IMG/VR virus record: IMGVR_UViG_3300042560_002469
Source of the DNA: an uncultured virus (IMG/VR IMGVR_UViG_3300042560_002469)
Lineage: Duplodnaviria > Heunggongvirae > Uroviricota > Caudoviricetes
Length of the DNA: 64,000 nt
Reading direction: 5' to 3' (one strand)
Part shown: in pieces, positions 3,176 to 57,268 of the stretch
Layout: each line of letters begins with the position of its first letter
Numbering within the stretch: the first letter of the stretch is position 1
Notes under the pieces: model-generated
What the model saw: only the letters and a program-made list of their open reading frames with translations
Told to the model about the DNA's origin: nothing
The model's database searches: none
Position numbers and translations under genes: made by a program

Positions 3176-3583
3176 ATGCCCCAAGACTACCCGAAACCCA
3201 TTGTGCCGCCGCCGGAGCTGAGCGACGAGCAAGTAGGCGAATGGCTAATTGACGATGACTACCCGTGGGATCCCTCGGAGCAAGCTGTTATCACCATCAC
3301 CCCCAGCCGACTCAAGAACGTTGCGCGTCAGGCTTACCAGGCAGGCGCCGACCAGGAGTTGGAGGCGTGTTGCCTGGAGATTATTGACGGGGTGTGCCGT
3401 CTCTATGTCGATGAGACCAAGCTTCGTGAGCGCTTAGCCAATGACCTCCGCGCCGCCCGCCGCCCTAAGCCGCCGTCACTGAAAGAGCAGGCGTTAGACG
3501 CCCACAATCGAATGATGGCTGGAGAAGAAACACAAGATGATTGGGCGATTGTCCGCCGCGCACTGGAGCAACTCGATGACTGA
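3176..3583 (+). CDS. Hypothetical protein, modular family A (PPPEL...GADQEL...RPKPPSLKEQAL...RRALE)
   Basis: GGAGG RBS; paralogous to 21376-21744 and 21737-22093. Confidence 0.75.
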   Translation: MPQDYPKPIVPPPELSDEQVGEWLIDDDYPWDPSEQAVITITPSRLKNVARQAYQAGADQELEACCLEIIDGVCRLYVDETKLRERLANDLRAARRPKPPSLKEQALDAHNRMMAGEETQDDWAIVRRALEQLDD

Positions 3584-13578: not shown

Positions 13579-13607
13579 AAAGAAAGGGGCCGAAGCCCCT
13601 TATTTTC
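13579..13607. terminator. Intrinsic terminator (possibly bidirectional)
   Basis: AAGGGGC-CGAA-GCCCCTT flanked by A- and T-tracts. Confidence 0.7.
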
Positions 13608-13857: not shown

Positions 13858-13929
13858 GGTGTTTCTCCAGGGGAGTGATGGTACAGCCCTTTGTGGGCCT
13901 GCCAATCTTACCCCCTTCGAGACCTCCTG

Positions 13930-14694
13930 TCACCCCCTGTCCATCGTGAGCGCAAATGCCCTGCCGCCGGGGTACCACGCATTGAAATATCTCTTTACCG
14001 TATCGGCCATGATGCGCTGCTGGCTGACCAGCTCAAAACCATCAAGGTGGACCAACTGAAGAATGCTCTTGCTTTTCTCGTCTTCTGGGTCGAAGCAGGA
14101 AATGACGCACCAGGCCTCGTCAATGGAAGTGTCGTACATTTGCTCTGCTGCCATCGAATAGGCCCCAAGCTGTCGTTTGTAGTCGGCCAGTTGGTAATCT
14201 GGCTTTTCCTTGAAGCTTGTCTTCCAGTCGATCAAGGCAGTGCGACCATCGGCCATCTTTGCGACCATATCAAGCGTGCCGCTATAGCCAATTTCCCTGT
14301 CGAGGTCAAACCAAGCCACTGCGCTTTCAACCAAGACCGGCTCCGCGATGTGCTCCAAGAATGGGTCTATGGTCTGGAAGTAGACGGCCCATTCCTTTGC
14401 TTTTTCCAGGTGGTGCTCGATGTCTTCCCCATTGAACCAATCCTCCAAGACGCCATGGAGCCAAGTGCCGCGATTAGCGGCAAGCCTTGTACGCCTATTG
14501 GCCTCGTCATCTCCCACTCGCTTTCGCCAATTCATAATGGCCATAATCTTGGCCACTGGCGCCATGGAAGAAAGGGTGGTAGTAACAGAAGGAAGAACCA
14601 TGCCCTCTGGCACGTTTGGGAAGCTCTCGCAGATGTAGTGCCTTTTCCCATTGAGACTGATCCGCTTGGGTTCAAAGCGCTCAAAAGAGGGCAT
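13930..14694 (-). CDS. PD-(D/E)XK exonuclease
   Basis: 'PSVTTTL', 'RGTWLH', 'YSGTLD', 'IDWKTS', 'QLGAY'. Confidence 0.85.
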   Translation of the reverse strand: MPSFERFEPKRISLNGKRHYICESFPNVPEGMVLPSVTTTLSSMAPVAKIMAIMNWRKRVGDDEANRRTRLAANRGTWLHGVLEDWFNGEDIEHHLEKAKEWAVYFQTIDPFLEHIAEPVLVESAVAWFDLDREIGYSGTLDMVAKMADGRTALIDWKTSFKEKPDYQLADYKRQLGAYSMAAEQMYDTSIDEAWCVISCFDPEDEKSKSILQLVHLDGFELVSQQRIMADTVKRYFNAWYPGGRAFALTMDRG

Positions 14695-14869
14695 GGTTCG
14701 GGACAGGGCGAGGTCGTAACAAGCCACTATCGCGCCTATCGATTAGGAATGCAATAGCCGTTTGATCGATAGTAGCCAAGTGGGCATGAACCGTTTCTAA
14801 TGATGGGCTGATTACATGCCAACATGGGCATGGAGAAAAAGACGATGGAGAGGAGAAGAAGGGCGGGTT

Positions 14870-15127
14870 TCATGATGAGAGATCGTAAGAATCGATAATG
14901 GCGCCGGTGTCCCTATCCCAGCAGGTGTGACAGTCGGGGCACTGATAGGCAATACAGCGATCCTGCTGCCAAGAGCTGATGGCAATCACTCGAGAGAACC
15001 ATTCGCTATTTCCAAATAGCCAACGGCTCTTCTCTGGGATTGGCTTGTCGTGCCACAAAGAGCCGCATTCAGGACAATGCTTGAGGCTGACTAAAGAGAT
15101 CACTGAAGTCTTCTGCGAGAGGGGCAT
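14870..15127 (-). CDS. Small Zn-ribbon protein (start uncertain)
   Basis: CPEC...CPDC. Confidence 0.6.
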   Translation of the reverse strand: MPLSQKTSVISLVSLKHCPECGSLWHDKPIPEKSRWLFGNSEWFSRVIAISSWQQDRCIAYQCPDCHTCWDRDTGAIIDSYDLSS

Positions 15128-15187
15128 TGAGCTTGTCGGCAATGACCGCGCCCGCAAAACTTTTTGCAAGCGCGGCTGCTGCCCTAT

Positions 15188-16165
15188 CTACTTTTTTCCT
15201 TCCACGAACACAGACACCCCCTTAATGGCATTGTCAACTGACCCTTCCGAGCAAATAGCTCGCAGGCAATCAACCTCCTTGGTCATGTCAGCCTTGGTGA
15301 TCTTGATACCCTGGGCCTTGGTCCATGATGTGACCATGGTTGTCACCACATTGGCAAACATTTCCCTGTCTTTCACATCTTCTCCCTTGGTAAGCCCAAG
15401 AGCTTCAAGCCCAGCCTTGACAGCTTTCATGCTTGTGGTGCGGTCTGGGTAGCCGAGGGGATTGGCTTCGCCAAAGCCAAGAAGCGCTGCTTTGCCATCG
15501 AACTCGGCTCCTCCACCGGAGGGAGCAGCTTCAGCTCCTCCAATTGCATCATCAGCAGGCACAGGCGTCTCTTGTTTCGTGCTTCGCCGCGCAGACGGCT
15601 TCGCAGTTTCCTGTTGAAGCGGGAGCCGGGGAGACTGCTCTTTTTCATCGTCTGCTTTAGGAATGTCTTCGCCTGAGTAGAGCTTGAGACCAAGACCAGT
15701 GAAGGTGGCGATGCACTTCACGGAAGCCCGCTGGATGTTGTCGCTCACTTGACGAGCATCAAGAGCTTTTACGGCGCTGTGCTTGTTGTCCATGATGGGA
15801 AACACCAGCGCAGGAGTGCGCTTGACGCCATCGGTGAGATAGGGGCGAAGCAGCCAGCAGCCCTCTTGACCGAACACCGGCCAGCCAGCTTCCTTTTCTT
15901 CAAAGGCCACATAAACAGCAGGAAATTGCTCCTTCAAATAGCGGAAGGCAAAGGGCCATGACAGATAGGAAAGGCCTTTATAGTTCTTCTCCACGTGATC
16001 GCCAATAGGCAGCTCGTAAGCCTTGGTGAAGGCTTCTGAGGAAATCTCAAGAGGGGAGAAATGGCCGAGCATTCGTTCGGTCAGCATGGCTTCATTGACG
16101 GCAGTGACGGGAAGAGTCATGTCTTGGAAATGGCTGGGGTCGTAAAAGAGAAGAGAGTTTTTCAT
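15188..16165 (-). CDS. Single-strand annealing protein, Sak3/DUF1071-like; candidate -1 frameshift extension to 15069
   Basis: 'VEK...LSYLSW', 'PIMDNKH', 'QRASVKCIA..GLGLKLYSGED'. Confidence 0.8.
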   Translation of the reverse strand: MKNSLLFYDPSHFQDMTLPVTAVNEAMLTERMLGHFSPLEISSEAFTKAYELPIGDHVEKNYKGLSYLSWPFAFRYLKEQFPAVYVAFEEKEAGWPVFGQEGCWLLRPYLTDGVKRTPALVFPIMDNKHSAVKALDARQVSDNIQRASVKCIATFTGLGLKLYSGEDIPKADDEKEQSPRLPLQQETAKPSARRSTKQETPVPADDAIGGAEAAPSGGGAEFDGKAALLGFGEANPLGYPDRTTSMKAVKAGLEALGLTKGEDVKDREMFANVVTTMVTSWTKAQGIKITKADMTKEVDCLRAICSEGSVDNAIKGVSVFVEGKK

Positions 16166-16344
16166 TCTGCATCTTCTGATGCGGGAAAGTCGAGGCCGGT
16201 GGTCATTTCGTAATCACCATCTTGATTGATCGTGACCAAGAGACTCCCGACCTTTACGCCAGTGTCATCTTCGAACATTTGCAGCACGGCAGCAATGTGA
16301 TCATCAAGCTCATCAAGCCTTGCCGTGAATTCTTGAAGATTCAT
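16162..16344 (-). CDS. Hypothetical protein
   Basis: ATGA-coupled 60-aa ORF. Confidence 0.6.
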   Translation of the reverse strand: MNLQEFTARLDELDDHIAAVLQMFEDDTGVKVGSLLVTINQDGDYEMTTGLDFPASEDAE

Positions 16345-17003: not shown

Positions 17004-18944
17004 ATGGCGTTCTCCATCCTTGACTTTCTTGACCAGCTCGAGCCCAGCAACGAAAAGGGGAAATTCCTCTGCCCGGCGTGCGGCGGGAACGATTTTACGG
17101 TCAACAAGAATACTGGAGGCTATAACTGCTGGCACGACCCCTCTCCTGCCCACCGCGCCGACATCCGAGATGCTCTTGCGCCGCTGACACGATGGGAGAA
17201 GCCACCACGCAGTCCTGGCCGTTACGACTTTTCGTACCAGGACAGAGGGGGGTCTGAAATTGTCGTCGTTCATCGCGACGACACAAGCGGCAGCAAAAGG
17301 ATTTGGCAAGATTTTCCCACGATTGAAAAATCATCCAGCGGCCACAAGGCCCAGCTCCAGGAAGTAAAGACAAAGATTCTGCCCTACAAATATCACGAGG
17401 CCATTGCCAAAAGCGAAGCCACTGGTCTGCCTATTTTTATTGTCGAAGGCGAGCTCACTTGCGAATCCATGTGGGCAATCGAACTGCCCTGTGTCACTTT
17501 CCTGGGTGGCTCCAAGCAGTATCGCACTAATGGTGACTATTCAAGCCTGTTCAAAGGGCGCCAGCTTGTTCTGTGTCCGGACAGGGACGAGCAGGGCGTG
17601 GCCTTTATGGCAGAAGTGGCCAATGATAATCCTGGGGCACAGTGGCTTTATGCCGATCCTCGCTCCTGGGAATGGGACAATTTGCCATCAGGCAATGGCT
17701 ATGACATTGGAGACTATATCGAAGAAGGCGCCACGAAAGACGACTTGCTTTCTTCCATTGTCTCAAAAAGCCGCCATAAAAATACTGACGGCAAGCCTTC
17801 TTATGAAGAAATTATTTCCACCATTGAAGGGTTTGTGGGCCTCTATGCCAATGACGCTCGCATTAACTACGAGACCAACTACTGGCTAGAGCAACGTGGC
17901 GTCAAAATGACGCAGCAAAACGTAGAAAAGATCATCGACGAAGCCAGAACGCGAGTGCATGGAAAAGAAGAAATCGAAAGCATAGATGCCCTTACCATCG
18001 CCAGTTCGGACAAGGCTCGTGACTGGCTGATTGCTGGCATTGTTCCCCTGGGCAGTGTGACGCTGCTTGCAGCCGCAGGCGGCACGGGCAAAACGACATT
18101 GCTTTACAACTGGGCCTTGCACGTCGGACTTGGCACGCCATGGAGCGGCAGGAGATGCATGAAAGGAAGATGCCTGCTGATCAGTGCCGATGAGCCTTTG
18201 ACTGATACGGCCGAGAAACTTTCAGTGATTGGCTACCAAGATGCCGGACTAGAGCCGGGTGACATCAGCTTCTGGGAAACCTGGCGCTTTGCCCACATGA
18301 AGCAGCTTGAAGACTACATCAGAAAAGAACGTCCTTCGCTGGTGATGATCGACAGTCTCACGGCTTGCCTTGCGGGCATGAACGTAGATCTTGCGAAGAG
18401 CTCTGCTGGTGATGCCATATATGGCTTGCGCGACATGGCCAATACCTACCGCTGCTCCATTGTCATCTTGCACCATTTGAACAAAAGCGGGGGCCTGCGA
18501 GATTCGACCAGCTTTGTAGATAACGTCAGTGAAGTGGTCAAACTAACCCGCTCAGAAAGCTTCGACCCCAATGAATTCACTTTGGAATGGCTCAAGAGCC
18601 GTAGTGGCCTGACGGGCAAGCACGTCCTAAAACGAGACAGCCTCAACTATGGGTGGCATTATGCCGGACCTCTTGGAGGCTCTCTCGAGGAGCTGAATCA
18701 AGTGGTGAATGTGGTCAACATGCGCAAAACGGAGCGGTTCAACAAGCATCAAGTGGCAAGTTTGTGCGGAAGCTTCGACACTTCTTCGACTGGCAAGATG
18801 CTTGAAGTCGCACGCAGGCAGGGCTTGATCACCAGTAGTTTTGTCAATGGTCCCAATGGTGAAAAGACCAGGGCATATCATTCCTGGGACTACCAAGAAC
18901 CAGACTTTTCCGTTGAAGATGCCGAAGAGGAAGATTTTTTCTAG
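17004..18944 (+). CDS. Primase-helicase (Zn finger, TOPRIM, AAA_25/RepA-like helicase)
   Basis: CPAC; 'IVEGE'; 'PDRDEQG'; Walker A 'AGGTGKT'; Walker B 'MIDS'; 'LHHLNK'. Confidence 0.88.
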   Translation: MAFSILDFLDQLEPSNEKGKFLCPACGGNDFTVNKNTGGYNCWHDPSPAHRADIRDALAPLTRWEKPPRSPGRYDFSYQDRGGSEIVVVHRDDTSGSKRIWQDFPTIEKSSSGHKAQLQEVKTKILPYKYHEAIAKSEATGLPIFIVEGELTCESMWAIELPCVTFLGGSKQYRTNGDYSSLFKGRQLVLCPDRDEQGVAFMAEVANDNPGAQWLYADPRSWEWDNLPSGNGYDIGDYIEEGATKDDLLSSIVSKSRHKNTDGKPSYEEIISTIEGFVGLYANDARINYETNYWLEQRGVKMTQQNVEKIIDEARTRVHGKEEIESIDALTIASSDKARDWLIAGIVPLGSVTLLAAAGGTGKTTLLYNWALHVGLGTPWSGRRCMKGRCLLISADEPLTDTAEKLSVIGYQDAGLEPGDISFWETWRFAHMKQLEDYIRKERPSLVMIDSLTACLAGMNVDLAKSSAGDAIYGLRDMANTYRCSIVILHHLNKSGGLRDSTSFVDNVSEVVKLTRSESFDPNEFTLEWLKSRSGLTGKHVLKRDSLNYGWHYAGPLGGSLEELNQVVNVVNMRKTERFNKHQVASLCGSFDTSSTGKMLEVARRQGLITSSFVNGPNGEKTRAYHSWDYQEPDFSVEDAEEEDFF

Positions 18945-20634: not shown

Positions 20635-21383
20635 TGATTTGCTTGGTCGTAGAGGGTGTTGACGACGATGCCACGATCGCCGGGGTAGAGGTCTAAAGGT
20701 GCTTCGTTAAGCCACAAGGCCACCTCGCGGATCGCGGCGCGGGCTTCCGCTTCGTTCCCAGCGTTGTTCTCAAACTGCTCAAAGATTGCAGCGCCTACTC
20801 GCTCCACCAACAAACTATCTGGTTTGGCCGGATGGTTGCGTCGCGGCTCTGGCGCAAGCAGATCCCTGATCTGTTGCGCTTGCTCAGGCGTCAACTTCAG
20901 CGGTTCATTGATCTCGTAGACCTTTGAGGCTGGGCGCTTGGGCAACTCGGCGGCCGAACGGATCTGTTCTGGCGTGGCATTGCGGATCAAGTCCATACAC
21001 GCATGAAACCGGCGGTTGTTCTCTTCCTCGTTAATCGGCTCAGGTTGCTGCTGCGTGGACTCCAGCGCTTCGACCCGGCTTGCCAAGGCCAAAATGTTGG
21101 CGCTGGTTTCGACGATGTGTTTGTGAGCTGCAGCTTCCAGTGTTTCAACATTGGCGCGGAGTTCTTCATCGGACATCAGATTGGCAAAAAACTTCGATCT
21201 GTCTGGGGCCATTGATGCGCAGGTGTTAGCCAGTCGTAAGTGATCACAGCGAAATTGATACATGCACGCTTCCAGTATTTCAACCCTGGCACGAAGTTCA
21301 AGGAGGCAACAAGCGTCCTCGCTTTCAGGTGCAAACTTTTCTTGCACTTCCCACTGTTCGGGCGTTGCTTTGTAGTCAGTCAT
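20631..21383 (-). CDS. Hypothetical protein, modular family B (extended)
   Basis: Three 'VExLE' modules; shares 'AAAHKHI.ET' and 'SKVYEI..PLKLT' with 3576-4115. Confidence 0.75.
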   Translation of the reverse strand: MTDYKATPEQWEVQEKFAPESEDACCLLELRARVEILEACMYQFRCDHLRLANTCASMAPDRSKFFANLMSDEELRANVETLEAAAHKHIVETSANILALASRVEALESTQQQPEPINEEENNRRFHACMDLIRNATPEQIRSAAELPKRPASKVYEINEPLKLTPEQAQQIRDLLAPEPRRNHPAKPDSLLVERVGAAIFEQFENNAGNEAEARAAIREVALWLNEAPLDLYPGDRGIVVNTLYDQANQ

Positions 21384-21744
21384 TGGGCAGTGCCTTTAAT
21401 GCTTTGCGAATGGTGTCGTAAGTGGAATCATCTATTTGGCCTAAGTTGTAGGCATCAACAAGTTCCCACAACGCTTGCTCCTTTAGGCTTGGTGGCTTGG
21501 GACGCATTGCTTCTTTTAGCAATTCGCCCACTGGAGTAATCCTCAAATGCGGTTCATTCAGAGCATTGTGATCCAGCCACTTTGCGTCTTCTGCAAGTTG
21601 CTGGTCGGCGCCCCATTGAGCGGCGCGGGTGGCAATAGCAGTTTCAACGCCGGCGAGCTCGCCACTTACAGGACAGCCGTAGTAATCGCCAATCCACTGC
21701 TGCACCAGCTCCGGCGATGGGGTGATGGGGTGTTGGTTAGTCAT
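21376..21744 (-). CDS. Hypothetical protein, modular family A
   Basis: 'HPITPSPELVQQW...QWGADQ...RPKPPSLKEQAL...TIRKAL'. Confidence 0.75.
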   Translation of the reverse strand: MTNQHPITPSPELVQQWIGDYYGCPVSGELAGVETAIATRAAQWGADQQLAEDAKWLDHNALNEPHLRITPVGELLKEAMRPKPPSLKEQALWELVDAYNLGQIDDSTYDTIRKALKALPND

Positions 21745-22093
21745 TGATAGTCTCCAGTGCTTTACGAATAAGATCAAGTTCACGCATTTGGTCCGAGAAA
21801 AACTCACCGCTCTTCTCAAATCGTTTTACACTTTCCAAGGCCAGTTCCTTCAAACTCAGTGGCCTCGGGCGGCGATAGTTATAGAACTCGGTCACATCCT
21901 CTTCCTCCCATGCAGCGCACTGTTTGAGGTAGTTGCCACAAGCCAAAAGCTCTTGGTTAGCGCCCCATTGAGCGGCTTCGGTCGCTACATAGTCGAAGTA
22001 AGTCTTTGGATCGTCTTGATACTGGTCGGCTTGCTCCCACCACTGCTGCACCAGCTCCGGCGGTGGGGTGATTGGGTGTTGTTGGTTAGTCAT
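21737..22093 (-). CDS. Hypothetical protein, modular family A
   Basis: 'HPITPPPELVQQW...QWGANQEL...SLKELAL...IRKALE'. Confidence 0.75.
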   Translation of the reverse strand: MTNQQHPITPPPELVQQWWEQADQYQDDPKTYFDYVATEAAQWGANQELLACGNYLKQCAAWEEEDVTEFYNYRRPRPLSLKELALESVKRFEKSGEFFSDQMRELDLIRKALETIND

Positions 22094-22207
22094 GGTGTTA
22101 GTCAGATTCACTAAGGGCGTGTAAGTATGTACGTGAGACAAACCATAATGGTGCAAACAACAAGGGCTTCTGCCACTAGTCCTCCTGAATAGTGGGGTTT
22201 GGTGTGC

Positions 22208-49467: not shown

Positions 49468-49719
49468 ATGACCAAGAAAGAAAAGCAGGCAAAAATTCGC
49501 ACTGTCATGAGGGAGTTCAAGGCCGGCAAGCTCAAAAGCAGCAGTGGCGAACCAGTCAAGAGCCCTCAGCAGGCTCTCGCGATTGCACTGTCCGAAGCTG
49601 GAATGTCTCGGAAGCCCAAACAGGATATGGGCGACGAGTATTACATGGCCTTCATGAAAGAACTTGGAGGCGCAGAAGAGGAAGAAGAGGGCATGAAAGA
49701 TTCAATGGGAAAGGACTGA
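49468..49719 (+). CDS. DUF6496-like small basic protein; candidate -1 frameshift fusion to 50066
   Basis: 'KIRTVMREFKAGKLKSSSG..VKSPQQALAIALSEA'; ends G GGA AAG GAC TGA. Confidence 0.8.
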   Translation: MTKKEKQAKIRTVMREFKAGKLKSSSGEPVKSPQQALAIALSEAGMSRKPKQDMGDEYYMAFMKELGGAEEEEEGMKDSMGKD

Positions 49720-56069: not shown

Positions 56070-56323
56070 AGATTGATTATTTGCATAGCGCCGACAATTT
56101 GGTTCACGCCATCAATATCAGCATTGATGGTGCCGCAATGGAAGTGGGCATCCTTTGTCTTATTTCCCATAGACAGGCGACCATTAGAATTGCGAACGAC
56201 TACCACTCGTTCCTCGTTGAAATACCTCCTCAGTTTCGCTCTAGTTTTGAGCGAGTGAAAGTGTTCAACGCTCTTCTCAACATTCTCGATCATGAGCAAA
56301 TACAGTTTTCTGCTGGAGACTAA
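56066..56323 (+). CDS. Hypothetical protein
   Basis: ATGA coupling. Confidence 0.5.
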   Translation: MKIDYLHSADNLVHAINISIDGAAMEVGILCLISHRQATIRIANDYHSFLVEIPPQFRSSFERVKVFNALLNILDHEQIQFSAGD

Positions 56324-56840
56324 GGAAGAAGGTTTTTGCGAGCTTCTGCCTGGCTTGCGCCTGAAAAAGTTTGGGGGATGGCTTGTTGCTGAGGCCATTG
56401 AGCAAGAGGAGATCGGCAAGCTTCAAAGCCAGGCGACGATCAAAGCTGTTCAATTGGCAAAAAGAATTGCCACTTCAAAGGGCATCAACTTGGACGAAGC
56501 TTTTGCCCTGCTCCAAGGCGGAGGTGGCACAATCAGCGAGGCAGAGCTTCTCTCCGAATTTACGGAAGAAACCCTGAGCATGCTGACAAGTGGCTCTTCT
56601 GTCGAAGCTACCAACGCGCGAATGGTCACTGCCTTTATTCGCTCTCGCGGACAAGGGTTGATCGATGGGGAATGGCGTGATATTGGAGATTGGAGCACAG
56701 AGGACACCAACGCGCTTCCACGTCGCATTATTGCCAAGGTGGTTGAATTTATCAGCTCTGAGCAGGAATCAGAAATGAAGGAGGCCGGAGAAGCAAAAAA
56801 AGCGTCGAAGAGGAATTCCCCTCCATCGCAGAACAGTTAG
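56292..56840 (+). CDS. Tail assembly chaperone (gpG-like)
   Basis: Upstream of tape measure; slippery A AAA AAA at 56795-56801. Confidence 0.75.
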   Translation: MSKYSFLLETKEEGFCELLPGLRLKKFGGWLVAEAIEQEEIGKLQSQATIKAVQLAKRIATSKGINLDEAFALLQGGGGTISEAELLSEFTEETLSMLTSGSSVEATNARMVTAFIRSRGQGLIDGEWRDIGDWSTEDTNALPRRIIAKVVEFISSEQESEMKEAGEAKKASKRNSPPSQNS

Positions 56841-57268
56841 AAGCCCAGGCCAGAAAGTTTCTGGCCTCAATGACAAATTGGAATGAGCTGTATTTTCGGC
56901 TTGTGTCTTCGGACTTTAGGGATGATCGCTGGAGCTCGCAAAATTTTGGCAGACAAAGACTAAAAGATGTTCAGGCTGCATTGAAATATCTGGAGAAGCA
57001 CGACATAGCGAAGTACAACATTCAAAGCATTGCGACGGCAAAGTTTGGCGCAATGGCGTCCACCATGATGGGCGGCAAGAAGGGTTCGATTAAGGCCGAC
57101 TACTTTTTACCGTTCGACGTTAAGAAGATTCAAAAAGAGGAGAGCGTCACTGGTGAAAGCATGGCCGTACTACAACGATTGATGAAGCAGAGACGAATGG
57201 ATGGAAGGGTGATTGCGCTGCTTGCTGACGAGCTCAAGACATTCAGCAGCCGTAACCAGGACCAATGA
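56801..57268 (+). CDS. Tail assembly chaperone -1 extension (gpT-like)
   Basis: Open from the slippery site (SVEEEFPSIAEQLEAQARKFLAS) into 56870-57268. Confidence 0.7.
   Translation, partial: SVEEEFPSIAEQLEAQARKFLASMTNWNELYFRLVSSDFRDDRWSSQNFGRQRLKDVQAALKYLEKHDIAKYNIQSIATAKFGAMASTMMGGKKGSIKADYFLPFDVKKIQKEESVTGESMAVLQRLMKQRRMDGRVIALLADELKTFSSRNQDQ

Follow-up and report, generated by a model that had tools for sequence, protein, structure and literature searches.

In Escherichia coli dnaX, a slippery heptamer A_AAA_AAG followed by a 3' stem-loop yields isoforms that differ in the Pol III α-binding C-terminus, and for a few bacterial dnaX genes a reversed slip logic (longer product) is mentioned (PMC5009743). 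According to the same review, G_GGA_AAG is used by frameshift genes of the lambda gpG/gpGT type, and both heptamers are highly shift-prone in E. coli. On the side of the protein contact, the substitutions L627P, F631I and L635P in E. coli τ cost 5.4, 3.8 and 1.7 kcal/mol of α binding, and a 32-residue τ peptide binds α at only 3.8 µM (PMC1888804). The τ-binding domain comprises the last ~80 residues of α (PMC4703070). The staphylococcal phage 80alpha needs its annealing protein Sak to replicate, and the formation of concatemers is affected when Sak or Ssb is mutated (PMC5499656); that paper does not use the term 'frameshift'.

Here, we studied the Sak gene of an uncultured virus within a stretch of 64,000 nucleotides (IMG/VR record IMGVR_UViG_3300042560_002469), referred to as the window in the following. 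Like E. coli dnaX, the phage gene features A_AAA_AAG, a 3' stem-loop and two putative isoforms that differ in their C-terminus. Unlike dnaX, it encodes an annealing protein instead of a clamp loader, its slip would give the longer product, many relatives use G_GGA_AAG instead, and the window shows no upstream Shine-Dalgarno-like element. With the lambda gpG/gpGT type it shares a slip on the last codons, by which a partner-binding segment would be appended to the C-terminus in a fixed ratio, but the gene belongs to recombination/replication rather than tail assembly, and the segment is short (22-43 aa) and resembles a motif of a host protein. As in 80alpha and the lactococcal 936 group, the Sak gene (PF06378) lies beside an exonuclease and a probable SSB; the protein studied here differs by an extra helical C-terminal domain and its putative recoded second isoform. 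Finally, the added tail resembles the C-terminus of DnaX/τ (i.e., the end of PF12170, or the cyanobacterial motif after PF23007) in its helix with L-x-x-x-F-x-G/A-x-hydrophobic spacing and in its predicted docking on the C-terminal region of DnaE. In contrast to DnaX/τ, it lacks a folded domain V as well as the helix preceding τ's α-binding segment, and it is richer in Ala than the host motifs. Each part is of a known kind, namely Sak, a slip of the G/GT or dnaX type and mimicry of a short motif, while their combination was not found in the literature searched. This search, with most subscription papers outside its coverage, retrieved neither a paper on frameshifting in a phage single-strand annealing protein (SSAP) nor one on a phage τ mimic.

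The annealing gene and its genomic setting

The window represents most of an S-CBS4-like temperate cyanosiphovirus, with PHROGs matches to integrase, terminase, portal, tape measure, ribonucleotide reductase and thymidylate synthase. The features around the SSAP gene are compiled in Table 1. A public contig (run X1) covers positions 13900-16300 with 24 substitutions and no indel; it possibly stems from the same or a related sample.

Table 1. Features of the SSAP locus and its surroundings (window coordinates)
Feature	Position	Strand	Basis or remark
Small protein with acidic-hydrophobic C-terminal tip, probably phage SSB	13606..13905	-	position and tip
PD-(D/E)XK exonuclease	13930..14727	-	PF12705 and phrog_298 exonuclease, E 3e-45
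Next gene after SSAP, small Cys-pair (zinc-ribbon-like) protein	14870..15103	-	weak, sub-cut-off zinc-ribbon Pfam matches
Putative -1 frame tail, 40 aa, TGA at 15071-15069	15069..15191	-	~20 N-terminal residues form the conserved motif
Putative 3' stimulatory hairpin, register B	15138..15183	-	14-bp upper stem 15176-15145, 4-nt loop, 5-bp lower stem
7-nt spacer including zero-frame stop TAG (15190-15188)	15184..15190	-	sequence reading
Slippery heptamer A_AAA_AAG, directly 5' of zero-frame stop	15191..15197	-	sequence reading
Sak-family (Rad52-like) SSAP, 325-aa short form	15188..16165	-	PF06378, phrog_8492
Primase/helicase-like replication protein, divergent from SSAP gene	17004..18944	+	phrog_239 E 1e-32, AAA_25

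The preliminary description of this locus had assigned the gene to SSAPs of the Sak type under a 'Sak3' label, which we take to denote the Sak of the lactococcal 936 group. The family assignment is borne out. PF06378 is the sole Pfam match (E 1.6e-18; 67.2 bits vs. a curated cut-off of 22.3), phrog_8492 is matched with E 1.4e-43, and 80alpha Sak is the best fold match of the structure model (E 0.029; low-confidence model). When the whole model is compared with the PDB, no significant fold match is obtained. The model suggests a Sak domain at about residues 48-180, a low-confidence linker at 164-219 and a helical C-terminal domain at about 224-324. The latter, encoded at window positions 15191-15500, follows a flexible linker and is confidently modelled. 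The only full-length cultured relative is S-CBS4 gp079 (55.5% identical; host Synechococcus CB0101), while staphylococcal and lactococcal Sak proteins match over the N-terminal half only, with about 27-36% identity.

An exonuclease is the usual partner of an annealing protein, and the exonuclease gene as well as the probable SSB gene follow the SSAP gene. The candidate SSB shows no family match in the Pfam and PHROGs scans, and its naming is based on position and tip; a terminator-like site is found at 13601, after its gene. The small Cys-pair gene probably starts with a GTG at 15103, a start codon predicted by us, and would then share sequence with the ~11 final codons of the tail.

No DNA polymerase annotation is found among the 80 window ORFs scanned, and the 'polymerase/primase' family match of the primase/helicase is confined to its helicase part. 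PolA (PF00476) and DnaE (TIGR00594) are found neither in the window nor in five near-complete relatives (S-CBS4 and four contigs of 95-100% completeness), such that, as far as these two families are concerned, the polymerase lack pointed out in the preliminary description extends to these relatives. As an independent observation, phrog_32006 (function unknown) is present with three paralogues (3176-3580, 21379-21819 and 21740-22156), two of them in tandem.

The slip site, its hairpin and the -1 frame

The minus strand had been described to read GGA AAA AAG TAG at the end of the gene, and a -1 slip had been proposed to add a 40-aa peptide. Both are reproduced by our reading of heptamer, stop and translation (Table 1). 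The tail had furthermore been characterised by an acidic-hydrophobic end. This part does not extend to the relatives: the end is variable among tails of 22-43 aa, and it is the first ~20 residues that form a conserved helix-F-x-G-x-hydrophobic motif. As chance level for the heptamers, we count A_AAA_AAG or G_GGA_AAG in frame 7 times within the 18,130 codons of 76 window ORFs.

To homologous loci from four scans we added S-CBS4 and the window, which gives 206 sequences. We left out 12 loci truncated at the junction and collapsed the remainder to 120 distinct junctions. Within this set, 119/120 show one of the two heptamers, both of the X_XXY_YYZ type, at most one codon from the stop, and their -1 frame stays open for 22-43 aa. 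The two main arrangements are A_AAA_AAG directly before the stop (55 junctions) and G_GGA_AAG one codon before it (56), while G_GGA_AAG directly before the stop (7) and A_AAA_AAG one codon before it (1) are rare. The exception, L123, looks chimeric, i.e., homology stops at residue 303 and is followed by unrelated AT-rich DNA. The cultured phage S-CBS4 carries both slip site and open -1 frame; its annotation is without the long isoform. Similarly, each of the best 120 protein homologues (298-325 aa) is a short form with GKx, AKK or EGK as its last residues, and an SSAP with the tail in frame is not among them.

The only matches in bacterial genome collections (L202-L205) are from Verrucomicrobia and Gammaproteobacteria assemblies. 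As they are probably phage contigs that were binned along with these bacteria, they give no firm host for the most distant clade (L037, L039, L204, L205).

All 119 tails share an invariant Ala and Gly and a near-invariant Phe. Next, we compared the three frames of 62 non-redundant junctions. Stops occur in none of them in the -1 frame but in 61 in frame 0 and in 25 in the remaining frame. The synonymous share of single-base codon differences is 0.66 in the -1 frame vs. 0.25 and 0.08 in the other frames, and the -1 frame entropy by codon position (0.93, 0.63 and 1.38) is highest at the third position. The preliminary description had named the state of the -1 frame in homologous SSAP genes as a check, and the outcome speaks for a coding segment. 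Other routes to its translation were rejected. That is, read-through of the stop would meet frame 0 stops in 61/62 segments with read-through lengths from 0 to at least 100 codons, the +1 frame ranges from 1 to 188 in length without a coding signature, and independent translation would find ATG as first codon in only 1/62.

The slip type switches 8 times on a quick tree of 79 proteins, with at least 4 switches forced by well-supported branches; recombination could be the source of some of them. In all 38 G-type rows the distance from heptamer to peptide is constant though the stop shifts by one codon. We also searched for a dnaX-type Shine-Dalgarno-like stimulator 10-14 nt before the slip site. 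None is seen in the window. Among relatives, 18/38 G-type rows have a GGAG/GAGG/AGGA word whose end lies 11 nt upstream, and 5/24 A-type rows have one at 12-14 nt, both being raw counts.

The 7-nt spacer and subsequent stem of the preliminary description are recovered as a hairpin, and the spacer falls into the range of about 5-9 nt for the 3' structure of bacterial -1 frameshift sites. The respective 72-nt segment folds with -32.4 kcal/mol (z -3.03), and 2/200 shuffles are equally stable. When compared with synonymous shuffles that preserve the peptide, 55/64 junctions show z values below -1.5 vs. 9/64 for upstream controls, while the hairpin is weak in 9/64 junctions. Sorting 62 junctions by their pairing results in 37 of register A, 11 of register B (the window's) and 14 of neither, where the pair counts within a class lean towards that class due to the sorting. 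Both registers show two-sided (compensatory) changes, e.g., CG 21 / UA 15. The covariation of register A is 0.227 (45 rows) compared with 0.138 for shuffled and 0.098-0.126 for slid alignments. RNAalifold yields no single consensus fold over 45 rows because two hairpin registers exist. Where the stop of G-type rows is shifted by a codon, the spacing between heptamer and stem remains the same, as expected of a frameshift stimulator. Furthermore, one peptide is kept on two different stems, which points to selection on the peptide itself. A role of the hairpin as terminator was rejected, given that it has no U-tract and is not among the terminator-like sites.

Two deviating cases are to be mentioned. 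A clade with F-N-G in the motif (L060, L076, L127, L142) shows hairpin z values near 0 and may use another stimulator or slip less. In L120 (2930-3043), a 7-codon insertion separates slip site and motif; the -1 frame is still open, and no hairpin is present at the usual distance.

The preliminary proposal of a dnaX-type programmed -1 frameshift is thus backed by the comparisons of heptamer, hairpin, coding signature and slip-type switches. Judged from these sequence comparisons, a longer SSAP form is very probably produced by programmed -1 frameshifting in this cyanophage family.

The window holds two further likely -1 frameshifts. One is at G_GGA_AAG 49705-49711 (+), one codon before the stop of an ORF ending at 49718, with a complementary GGGGCGA...TCGCCCC stretch downstream and a -1 frame open for about 119 aa that matches phrog_2859 (E 4.5e-14). 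The other (56292-57268, +) lies just before the tape measure gene, where a 181-aa ORF has A_AAA_AAA close to its end and the -1 frame is open for 157 aa. Its position fits a G/GT tail assembly chaperone; a PHROG match was not found.

Likeness to cyanobacterial DnaX and predicted docking on DnaE

Long, chromosomal-type cyanobacterial DnaX proteins carry a V-x-x-A-A-Q-x-L-A-x-F-F-x-G-E-I motif near the C-terminus, which is missing from short plasmid-type DnaX. By analogy with E. coli, this motif would bind DnaE. The tail's terminal helix shows a comparable L/F-x-x-x-F-x-G-x-hydrophobic motif, and the preliminary description had suggested a resemblance to the C-terminus of cyanobacterial τ.

We evaluated this with an HMM built from the C-terminal 110 aa of 69 cyanobacterial DnaX, with the tail excluded from the build. 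Six-frame translation of the window gives 2,282 peptides, of which the tail ranks first (14.2 bits, E 0.0074; next 5.6), and it is top-ranked in 107/119 loci (not top in 12/119). When profiles are compared, the tail profile matches the cyanobacterial DnaX profile over 30 columns with probability 88.8, E 2.5e-6 and a score of 30, while 200 column-shuffled controls reach a mean of 8.3 and a maximum of 19.0. Against proteobacterial DnaX ends, the probability is 0.25 in the same register. The cyanobacterial motif itself is only weakly related to the proteobacterial α-binding helix (probability 4.8, E 0.008). Rank tests, profile comparison and shuffle control thus agree on the suggested resemblance, for which an HMM check had been proposed.

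Absolute scores are low. Picocyanobacterial-type DnaX, the likely host group, were defined at 80% identity (41 rows). All 41 have the motif 3-19 aa from the C-terminus, and some continue with a D-G-P-L stretch like the D-G-x-P-L of tails; with the tail profile, they reach no more than -1.6 to 0.4 bits. The highest score that this profile obtains on any DnaX is 12.8 bits, for an unnamed protein. Among 1.84 billion proteins (E up to 0.001), the tail profile finds neither a DnaX nor an in-frame SSAP fusion. From its 32 matches, 10 are short and represent related tails called as small ORFs; the remaining 22 are multi-stretch repeat matches (one examined, P0031). Scans of 12 tails against Pfam and NCBIfam give no family, the tail profile finds only chance matches among PDB sequences, and the ESM Atlas offers no usable match. 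A tblastn search of one 30-aa tail against cultured phages gives no match, the query being too short even for S-CBS4. Clamp-loader AAA+ domains and the folded domain V (PF12170 / PF23007) are absent from the SSAP and the 12 tails; PF12170 also finds no match in the two cyanobacterial DnaX scanned. The tail would work like a DnaX domain without being one.

Some observations concern DnaX itself. Many filamentous and unicellular cyanobacterial DnaX (P0055-P0155) end in an acidic D-D-x-P-F tip, which we presume to be akin to the SSB C-terminus; it is missing from picocyanobacterial and several Thermosynechococcus-type DnaX. The cyanobacterial plasmids L214, L215 and L216 encode a short dnaX (430-450 aa), located next to dnaN in L214 and L216. 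None of the three has a dnaE, and the two of their dnaX genes that were translated are without the τ C-terminal motif. Picocyanobacterial dnaX was found in none of 18 examined out of 43 viral-contig loci.

Finally, we predicted the complex of tail residues 1-32 with Synechocystis DnaE 1120-1355, folded without alignment. Synechocystis serves as stand-in host because plasmid searches gave no host-group dnaE, i.e., dnaE is found neither in 7 cyanobacterial plasmids nor among the matches listed from two plasmid searches. The complex score is 0.71 in three runs, a mark reached by 116/157 solved complexes and 2/215 mismatched pairs, compared with 0.33 for the best of 3 controls, an unrelated peptide with 47 confident contacts. 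Contact agreement between runs is at least 71% and partner pLDDT at least 65. In the predicted interface, L10, F14 and V18 of the tail contact DnaE 1272-1323 and share their register with L627, F631 and L635 of E. coli τ. Given its distance from the C-terminus, we infer DnaE 1272-1323 to be the τ-binding domain. The complex score may pass through likeness to known τ-α complexes. Taking motif and model together, the tail more likely than not binds host DnaE. A coupling of the SSAP to the host replisome, as put forward in the preliminary description, is suggested by the likeness of the motif and by a single complex model, in which the host is a stand-in.

Proposed mechanism, rival explanations and implications

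Slip site, hairpin, coding signature and motif likeness, all read from sequence, would be combined as follows. The hairpin would pause ribosomes on the last codons of the Sak gene, and a fraction of them would slip by -1 on A_AAA_AAG (G_GGA_AAG in many relatives), thereby skipping the stop and appending the tail of 22-43 aa. One gene would thus provide short and long annealing protein at a set ratio, and both forms would probably be co-assembled in one Sak oligomer. Via the predicted DnaE interface, the tails would tether host Pol III to 3' ends made by Sak and exonuclease, where it could serve the recombination-dependent replication of a phage that has a primase-helicase and no polymerase. 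An oligomer with several tails could offset the weak affinity of a single peptide. Slip efficiency, mixed oligomers and recruitment rather than inhibition are our inference. That a fixed fraction of Sak subunits tethers host Pol III via the tail is the reading towards which we lean slightly.

If little or no long protein was made, the hairpin would be a terminator, a processing site or an element for translation of the next gene, and the open frame a by-product or the trace of transcriptional slippage. Here, one can point to the conservation of the hairpin, since conserved RNA can mimic codon conservation. The peptide, however, shows an excess of synonymous changes, and its conservation spans both pairing registers and reaches past the stem. 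In addition, one or the other of two canonical -1 sites serves as heptamer, and the hairpin without U-tract is not terminator-like. Polymerase slippage usually needs longer homopolymer runs, whereas a long run is missing from G_GGA_AAG and the one in the window comprises only 6 A. We consider this explanation very unlikely. It is doubtful, to a lesser degree, that frameshift and tail are functional with another partner (primase-helicase, exonuclease, SSB, the own oligomer or the membrane) and that the DnaX likeness arose by chance, i.e., as a convergent Ala-rich amphipathic helix shaped by the GC-rich hairpin. The low absolute DnaX scores, above all for the host group, would fit such an origin, as would a motif of only about 15 informative residues and the score and confident contacts reached by an unrelated control peptide. 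Blind rank tests and the column-shuffle control, on the other hand, favour DnaX likeness, cyanobacterial DnaX is preferred over proteobacterial DnaX (probability 88.8 vs. 0.25), the same peptide is maintained on two hairpin registers, and an interface with DnaE is predicted.

The same frameshift and DnaE binding could also act in the opposite direction, such that the tail competes τ off host Pol III. Host replication would then be shut down or polymerase freed for the phage, and the slip would hold the toxic form low. The sequence and model evidence for DnaE binding fits this equally well, and low-level expression of the E. coli τ C-terminal domain is lethal, for which the authors blame α sequestration (PMC1888804). 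An inhibitor, however, would need no fusion to an annealing protein, while no free-standing tail is seen (the short database matches are the same tails called as spurious ORFs) and the tail is in frame in 0 of the best 120 homologues. In addition, a phage without polymerase needs active Pol III. Competition as the tail's role is thus unlikely in our view.

Tethering of Pol III by recoded Sak subunits would address an open question, namely in which way the host replisome takes over from a phage annealing protein in recombination-dependent replication. The tail points to the DnaE-binding motif of cyanobacterial τ and, if true, would represent phage mimicry of the τ-α contact, with a specific, short and mutable interface in the cultured pair S-CBS4 / Synechococcus CB0101. 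Phage -1 frameshifting would be widened from structural genes to a recombination gene. For recombineering, this suggests that some annealing proteins may by nature contain a tag that recruits polymerase. With either outcome for the polymerase, i.e., Pol III handed to recombination intermediates or pulled off the replisome, we find it reasonably probable that a widespread polymerase-less cyanophage clade recodes a τ substitute, and phages of this family may thereby borrow or divert the host DNA polymerase.
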